DNA of 64,000 nucleotides from Escherichia coli (lineage in GTDB: Bacteria; Pseudomonadota; Gammaproteobacteria; Enterobacterales; Enterobacteriaceae), in assembly GCF_050920415.1 (NCBI RefSeq), contig NZ_CP169309.1, one strand, 5' to 3'. Each line of letters opens with the position of its first letter. Position 1 is the stretch's first letter. The notes beneath the pieces were generated by a model that did not search any database, was not told where the DNA came from, and saw nothing but the letters and a program-made list of their open reading frames with translations. Shown here in pieces: positions 2,745 through 2,760 of this stretch. The position numbers and the translations under genes were made by a program.

Positions 2745-2760
2745 TGTGGTTGCTATCACA
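2745..2760. promoter_or_regulatory. CRP-like binding site (TGTGG-N6-TCACA) in the divergent lsrR / lsrACDB promoter region
   Basis: Near-consensus CRP palindrome tgtggttgctatcaca read directly in the lsrA-lsrR intergenic region; the lsr operon is known to be cAMP-CRP dependent. Confidence 0.5.

Follow-up and report, generated by a model that had tools for sequence, protein, structure and literature searches.

A probable cAMP-CRP site between lsrA and lsrR of Escherichia coli and the promoter that it may serve

The lsrA-lsrR intergenic region

The DNA considered here is a stretch of 64,000 nucleotides from Escherichia coli, referred to throughout as the window. Near its beginning, lsrA and lsrR diverge from a gap of 249 bp (2580-2828), with lsrK downstream of lsrR (Table 1). 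Across positions 2560-2850, identity is 100% with one E. coli chromosome and ~97% with most others; in these, the flanking genes carry the annotations lsrA and lsrR. The gap contains a palindrome resembling the binding site of cAMP-CRP, which the initial annotation described as centred between lsrR and lsrA. That placing is inaccurate, as the midpoint of the gap is at 2704, whereas the site is centred at 2752.5 and lies near lsrR, with 76.5 bp to the lsrR ATG against 173.5 bp to that of lsrA.

CRP control of this locus is described in the literature, in which cAMP-CRP sites are located between the two lsr promoters, and both lsrRK and lsr are modulated by CRP. Deletion of crp abolishes lsr expression, and in the published model CRP directly activates lsrA and lsrR. 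A RegulonDB-based network likewise assigns lsrA-G, lsrK and lsrR to CRP, as an incoherent feed-forward loop. The published promoter map, redrawn from Wang et al., 2005, gives the order p-lsrR box, CRPII, CRPI and p-lsrA box (Hauk et al., NAR 2016; PMC5137460).

The region is not carried by every strain: among 5,426 complete E. coli genomes, only 4,178 have the segment 2560-2850. At least one genome (hit H12) matches for just 69 bp, with lsrA directly followed in the match by an autotransporter gene that abuts it; lsrR, lsrK and both CRP sites thus appear to have been deleted there. Three further segments of the window (5983-11403, 14825-16052 and 31298-32058) correspond, in the chromosome that matches at 100%, to a large autotransporter gene of the ECSE_1600 family after lsrK, a frameshifted IS2 transposase and a frameshifted ydeO, respectively.

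Table 1. Features of the lsrA-lsrR region, in window coordinates
Feature	Position	Strand	Sequence	Remarks
lsrA	1044-2579	-		First in the lsrACDBFG operon for the AI-2 transporter; ATG at 2579; from ORF and annotation of matching chromosome
LsrR operator box A (lsrA side)	2611-2643		TGAACAAATGT...ATTTGTTCA	33 bp, TGAACA-N21-TGTTCA; published p-lsrA box
Candidate lsrA -10 hexamer	2647-2652	-	TAAGGT	TAnnGT invariant; outside LsrR box and CRP site; predicted start ~2640
CRPI, weak CRP-like site	2674-2689	-	TGTGATCTGTTCGTCG	Centre 2681.5; only the TGTGATC half is good
Putative middle LsrR-like box M	2695-2727		TGCTATTTTG...GTTTGTTCA	Degenerate in E. coli; right half alone intact
Core of probable cAMP-CRP site (published CRPII)	2745-2760		TGTGGTTGCTATCACA (TGTGG-TTGCTA-TCACA)	Centre 2752.5; 22-mer at 2742-2763, AACTGTGGTTGCTATCACAGAT
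LsrR operator box R (lsrR side)	2780-2812		TGAACAATTGC...ATATGTTCA	33 bp, TGAACA-N21-TGTTCA; within published p-lsrR box
Candidate lsrR -10 hexamer	2782-2787	+	AACAAT	Best conserved between CRP site and lsrR; predicted start ~2794
lsrR	2829-3782	+		Repressor gene; ATG at 2829; from ORF and annotation of matching chromosome
lsrK	3861-5453			Downstream of lsrR

Evidence for a CRP site

The palindrome TGTGG-N6-TCACA is present as first described. It matches the two-fold symmetric CRP core, TGTGA-N6-TCACA, at nine of ten positions, and this core sits within a 22-bp footprint. The bare motif is not significant by itself. TGTG-N8-CACA occurs once in the 64-kb window, at this site alone, against 1.27 occurrences expected by chance, and TGTGA-N6-TCACA with no more than one mismatch has three matches against 2.04 expected. 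Because these frequencies are at chance level, bare-pattern statistics were dropped as evidence.

Scoring with a CRP weight matrix is more informative. The matrix used was symmetric and approximate, derived from 19 classic sites, which themselves score 4.6-17.3 bits; the 22-mer around the palindrome, at 11.6 bits, falls within this range. It ranks fourth of the 63,979 positions in the window and is the top match in the lsrA-lsrR gap, where the runner-up reaches 5.3 bits. When the 249-bp gap was shuffled, 0.9% of the shuffles reached 11.6 bits or better (P = 0.009). A 2026 preprint, in which 19,795 Enterobacteriaceae genomes were scanned by FIMO with a CollecTF-derived CRP motif, reports the site in E. 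coli with a score of 16-17 and p ~1e-6, and lists the exact allele of the window, TGTGATAGCAACCACA, with a score of 16.7 and p = 1.02e-6 (preprint Table S4). In the supplementary files searched for one CRP ChIP-exo study, there is no lsr entry.

Conservation was assessed in orthologous regions. A genome scan with LsrR gave 22 loci, all of them with a divergent lsrA; they come from Escherichia, Citrobacter, Izhakiella, Superficieibacter, Kluyvera, Serratia sp., Edwardsiella, Buttiauxella and an uncultured enterobacterium. The alignment covered the gaps of the window, of K-12 and of 15 loci from this set (n = 17, spanning seven genera, with Buttiauxella excluded). TCACAG is kept in all 17 sequences and TGTGG in 14, the variants being CGTGG, TGCAG and TGAGG, while the spacer (six bases) and the left flank show essentially random sequence. 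Among seven genus-level representatives, mean column identity is 0.91 in the left half-site and 1.00 in the right, against 0.48 in the spacer and 0.45-0.60 in the flanks. The site thus has the conserved half-sites and free spacer of a CRP site. Only seven invariant blocks of at least four columns are found in the alignment of representatives, namely four LsrR-box half-sites, GATCAC of CRPI, TCACAG and the start of lsrR. In each of the 17 aligned sequences, the orthologous position is also the best CRP-matrix match upstream of lsrR. The Buttiauxella orthologues of the site have a degenerate left half (TGCCG) and score 6.9-9.6 bits. It is the matrix rank, the gap-shuffle P and the conservation of the half-sites that make the site convincing, and not the bare motif.

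Other matches to the approximate CRP matrix were noted elsewhere in the window. These are ATTGGTGATATACATCACATAT at 30824-30845 (16.0 bits), in the ydeP-safA gap; AAATCTGACCTGGATAACATCT at 32425-32446 (14.7 bits), just upstream of ydeN; and a match of 11.3 bits at 31037-31058, inside safA.

Correspondence with the published promoter map

Two CRP sites have been mapped in this region, and the second element in the window that resembles one is far weaker, scoring 3.8 bits in the approximate matrix. Its GATCAC is invariant, both in the 17-sequence alignment and among the seven representatives. The preprint gives this element p ~3.8e-5, listing it as a weaker second E. coli site, TGTGATCTATTCGTCG (preprint Table S4). 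The names CRPI and CRPII were assigned from the figure legend and text of Hauk et al., NAR 2016, in which TGTGCAAT is placed "very close to CRPI" (PMC5137460). This octamer was located at 2660-2667 on the - strand of the window, which leaves 7 bp to the half-site element at 2674-2689. The latter is thereby identified as CRPI, and the palindrome as CRPII. Compared in this way with the mapped lsr CRP sites, the palindrome has the position of CRPII, with the lsrR-side LsrR box on one side and CRPI on the other.

The K-12 site lies at the same locus and the same map position. CRPII of K-12 MG1655, TGTGGTTGCCATCACA, has half-sites identical to those of the window and differs in one spacer base (C to T). 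Three alleles were seen within E. coli, differing only in the spacer: TTGCTA (window), TTGCCA (K-12) and CTGCCA. When a 30-mer around the site was sought in complete E. coli genomes, the window form was found in 132 and the K-12 form in 2,629 (4,178 carry the region). The K-12 and window alleles have essentially equal matrix scores (11.7 and 11.6 bits).

Taken from its sequence and conservation, the palindrome is very probably a genuine cAMP-CRP site, the stronger (CRPII) of the two already described between lsrA and lsrR. As such it is already known and ordinary, and its confirmation adds nothing new to biology.

In Buttiauxella sp. A111 (L021, ~1773-1895), an insertion of ~120 bp lies between the CRPI and CRPII orthologues, and each CRP site stays with its own promoter. 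By eye, the insertion resembles an enterobacterial repeat of the ERIC type.

Which promoter the site serves

The spacing of the site points to the promoter with which it works. Of 24 sequences, 23 have a gap of 19 bp between the site and box R, and one has 18 bp, although the sequence of this gap is itself unconserved; the centre of the site lies 27.5 bp upstream of box R. The distance between the centres of CRPI and CRPII is, in contrast, variable: 71 bp in the window, 66 or 69 bp in relatives and 188 bp in one Buttiauxella, where an insertion has come between the two sites and left the palindrome beside lsrR. From the fixed spacing to box R, set against the variable distance to CRPI, we infer that the site works with the lsrR promoter and mainly activates transcription of lsrRK.

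A sigma-70 consensus scan of the lsrA-lsrR gap found no promoter and no -35/-10 pair, which fits activator-dependent promoters. Hexamers resembling a -10 element were therefore scored for their conservation across lineages on both strands of the gap. The candidate for lsrR lies inside LsrR box R, so that its conservation is confounded with that of the operator; relative to the start that it predicts, the CRP site would be centred at -41.5. The candidate for lsrA is free of such overlap, and relative to its predicted start CRPI would also be centred at -41.5. If TAAATA or AAATAT at 2801-2807 were used for lsrR instead, the site would be at -60.5 or -61.5, a class I position. At galP1, a class II CRP-dependent promoter, CRP is centred at -41.5, while at lac, a class I promoter, it is centred at -61.5. 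The lsrR promoter would resemble class II promoters such as galP1 in its predicted -41.5 centre and in having no recognisable -35 element; unlike that of galP1, its start is a predicted one, and class I spacing as in lac (-61.5) is equally allowed. The site may act from the predicted -41.5 position as a class II activator site. The tidiest model would be a pair of class II promoters, back to back, with an LsrR operator after each.

It is conceivable, though we think it unlikely, that the site chiefly boosts the lsrACDBFG promoter instead, where it and CRPI would form a tandem 'class III' pair with the palindrome as the distal member, any effect on lsrR being secondary. Most of the literature, like the initial annotation, speaks of CRP control over the lsr operon; the published lsr reporter fragment (-307 to +92 from the lsrA ATG) includes the site (NAR 2016; PMC5137460). 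CRPI is also very weak by itself, and a strong neighbour could help to recruit CRP to it. However, the palindrome would be centred at about -112.5 from the predicted lsrA start at ~2640, and at about -142 from an alternative start at ~2610. Both values lie beyond the range over which CRP is known to make contact with polymerase. The spacing between the two CRP sites is moreover unconserved (66, 69 or 71 bp, and 188 bp in the one Buttiauxella), in contrast to the fixed spacing between the palindrome and the lsrR operator. Action at the lsrRK promoter is hence preferred here. The initial proposal that the palindrome is consistent with cAMP-CRP control of AI-2 uptake holds for the system as a whole, in that the CRP site appears real and lsr is CRP-dependent in the literature; for this particular site such control would probably be indirect, given that the geometry ties it to lsrR and that CRPI is the site nearest to the transporter promoter.

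Very improbable is a role in a CytR-CRP repression complex, which has been suggested for the lsr promoter with a CytR octamer proposed at TGTGCAAT, beside CRPI (PMC5137460). Two CRP sites do lie in one region, and GTTGC is found within the spacer of the palindrome, but the proposed octamer does not adjoin it. Published promoter up-mutations change TGTGCAAT to TGTACAAT and TGTGTAAT, by which TGCAAT becomes TACAAT or TGTAAT (PMC5137460). This suggests that the mutations create better -10 hexamers, nearer to TATAAT, which is a simpler explanation than the CytR site of the paper. The arrangement of the CRP sites also argues against such a complex. In canonical CytR promoters the CRP sites are ~50-53 bp apart and CytR binds between them, whereas those of the window are 71 bp apart, at a distance that varies among relatives (66, 69 and 188 bp). 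A CytR-CRP nucleoprotein module was rejected on this spacing.

Least credible of all is that CRP plays no part and the palindrome arose by chance or works as a hairpin in RNA: although about one to two such cores are expected in 64 kb by chance, the half-sites are conserved across genera (TCACAG being invariant) while the spacer and flanks drift, and every aligned lineage has its top matrix match at this same position. Readings as an RNA hairpin, a terminator or a known RNA family were each rejected, as the RNA fold is no better than that of shuffles (z = -0.95), no terminator-like site was found, and there is no Rfam match at E <= 1.

Proposed mechanism

If the palindrome serves the lsrRK promoter, which box R overlaps, its role may be set out as follows. 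In the absence of a preferred sugar, when cAMP is high, a CRP dimer would bind the TGTGG and TCACA half-sites and aid initiation by RNA polymerase. With glucose or other sugars present, cAMP would be low, the site would be empty and lsr would stay off at any level of AI-2. On the opposite strand, the transporter promoter would rely on CRPI, a weaker half-site of its own that is likewise predicted to lie at -41.5. CRP would in this way turn on both the transporter and the repressor, and LsrR would then gate both in response to phospho-AI-2.

Such an arrangement is like that of sugar operons of the lac, rbs and mal type, where an incoherent feed-forward design is seen: CRP activates the transporter operon and the repressor, and the repressor gates both. 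Unlike these, lsr would use two separate CRP sites for two back-to-back promoters, and its repressor operators are the 33-bp TGAACA-N21-TGTTCA boxes. The palindrome belongs to the textbook connection of AI-2 quorum sensing with catabolite repression, in which lsr is off in the presence of sugars at any cell density. The additions made here are modest, and consist of the conserved spacing, which argues for placing the strong site with lsrRK rather than with the uptake operon, and the hint of a third LsrR-like box.

LsrR operators and a possible third box

The two CRP sites lie between the LsrR operators, boxes A and R, whose end half-sites are invariant across the aligned gaps. The published p-lsrR box extends from -237 to -197 relative to the lsrA ATG (PMC5137460). 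A matrix was built from 29 distinct A and R boxes, and its best extra match falls at the position of box M in all 17 of the aligned non-Buttiauxella sequences, 83-85 bp from boxes A and R. Scores at this position are 12-17 bits in Serratia sp., Edwardsiella, Kluyvera and UBA5654, 0.7-9.7 bits in Citrobacter, Izhakiella and Superficieibacter, and -3 to -4 bits in Escherichia (P ~0.03-0.04); in Buttiauxella there is no match to the LsrR-box matrix at this position. In Escherichia TTTGTTCA alone survives. GTTCA at 2723-2727 is conserved, and the box in the window has the pattern TG..TG..GTTCA. The three boxes begin at 2611, 2695 and 2780, so that neighbouring boxes are separated by 83-85 bp, roughly eight turns of the helix.

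No mention of a third LsrR box was found in the lsr literature, as far as this could be searched. That the two CRP sites sit between three evenly phased LsrR operators is unlikely on balance and is offered as a tentative lead from sequence comparison, the middle operator being putative and decayed in Escherichia. If the third box were real, LsrR tetramers could line a single face of the entire gap, with both CRP sites enclosed, and the fixed 19-bp gap between the palindrome and box R would reflect direct interplay between CRP and LsrR.

A small difference was also noted beside box A. At ~2645-2647 the window carries an extra A, reading cataaacc where K-12 and all other aligned sequences read cataacc. 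It falls between the putative lsrA -10 hexamer and box A, and increases their spacing by 1 bp in the lineage of the window.
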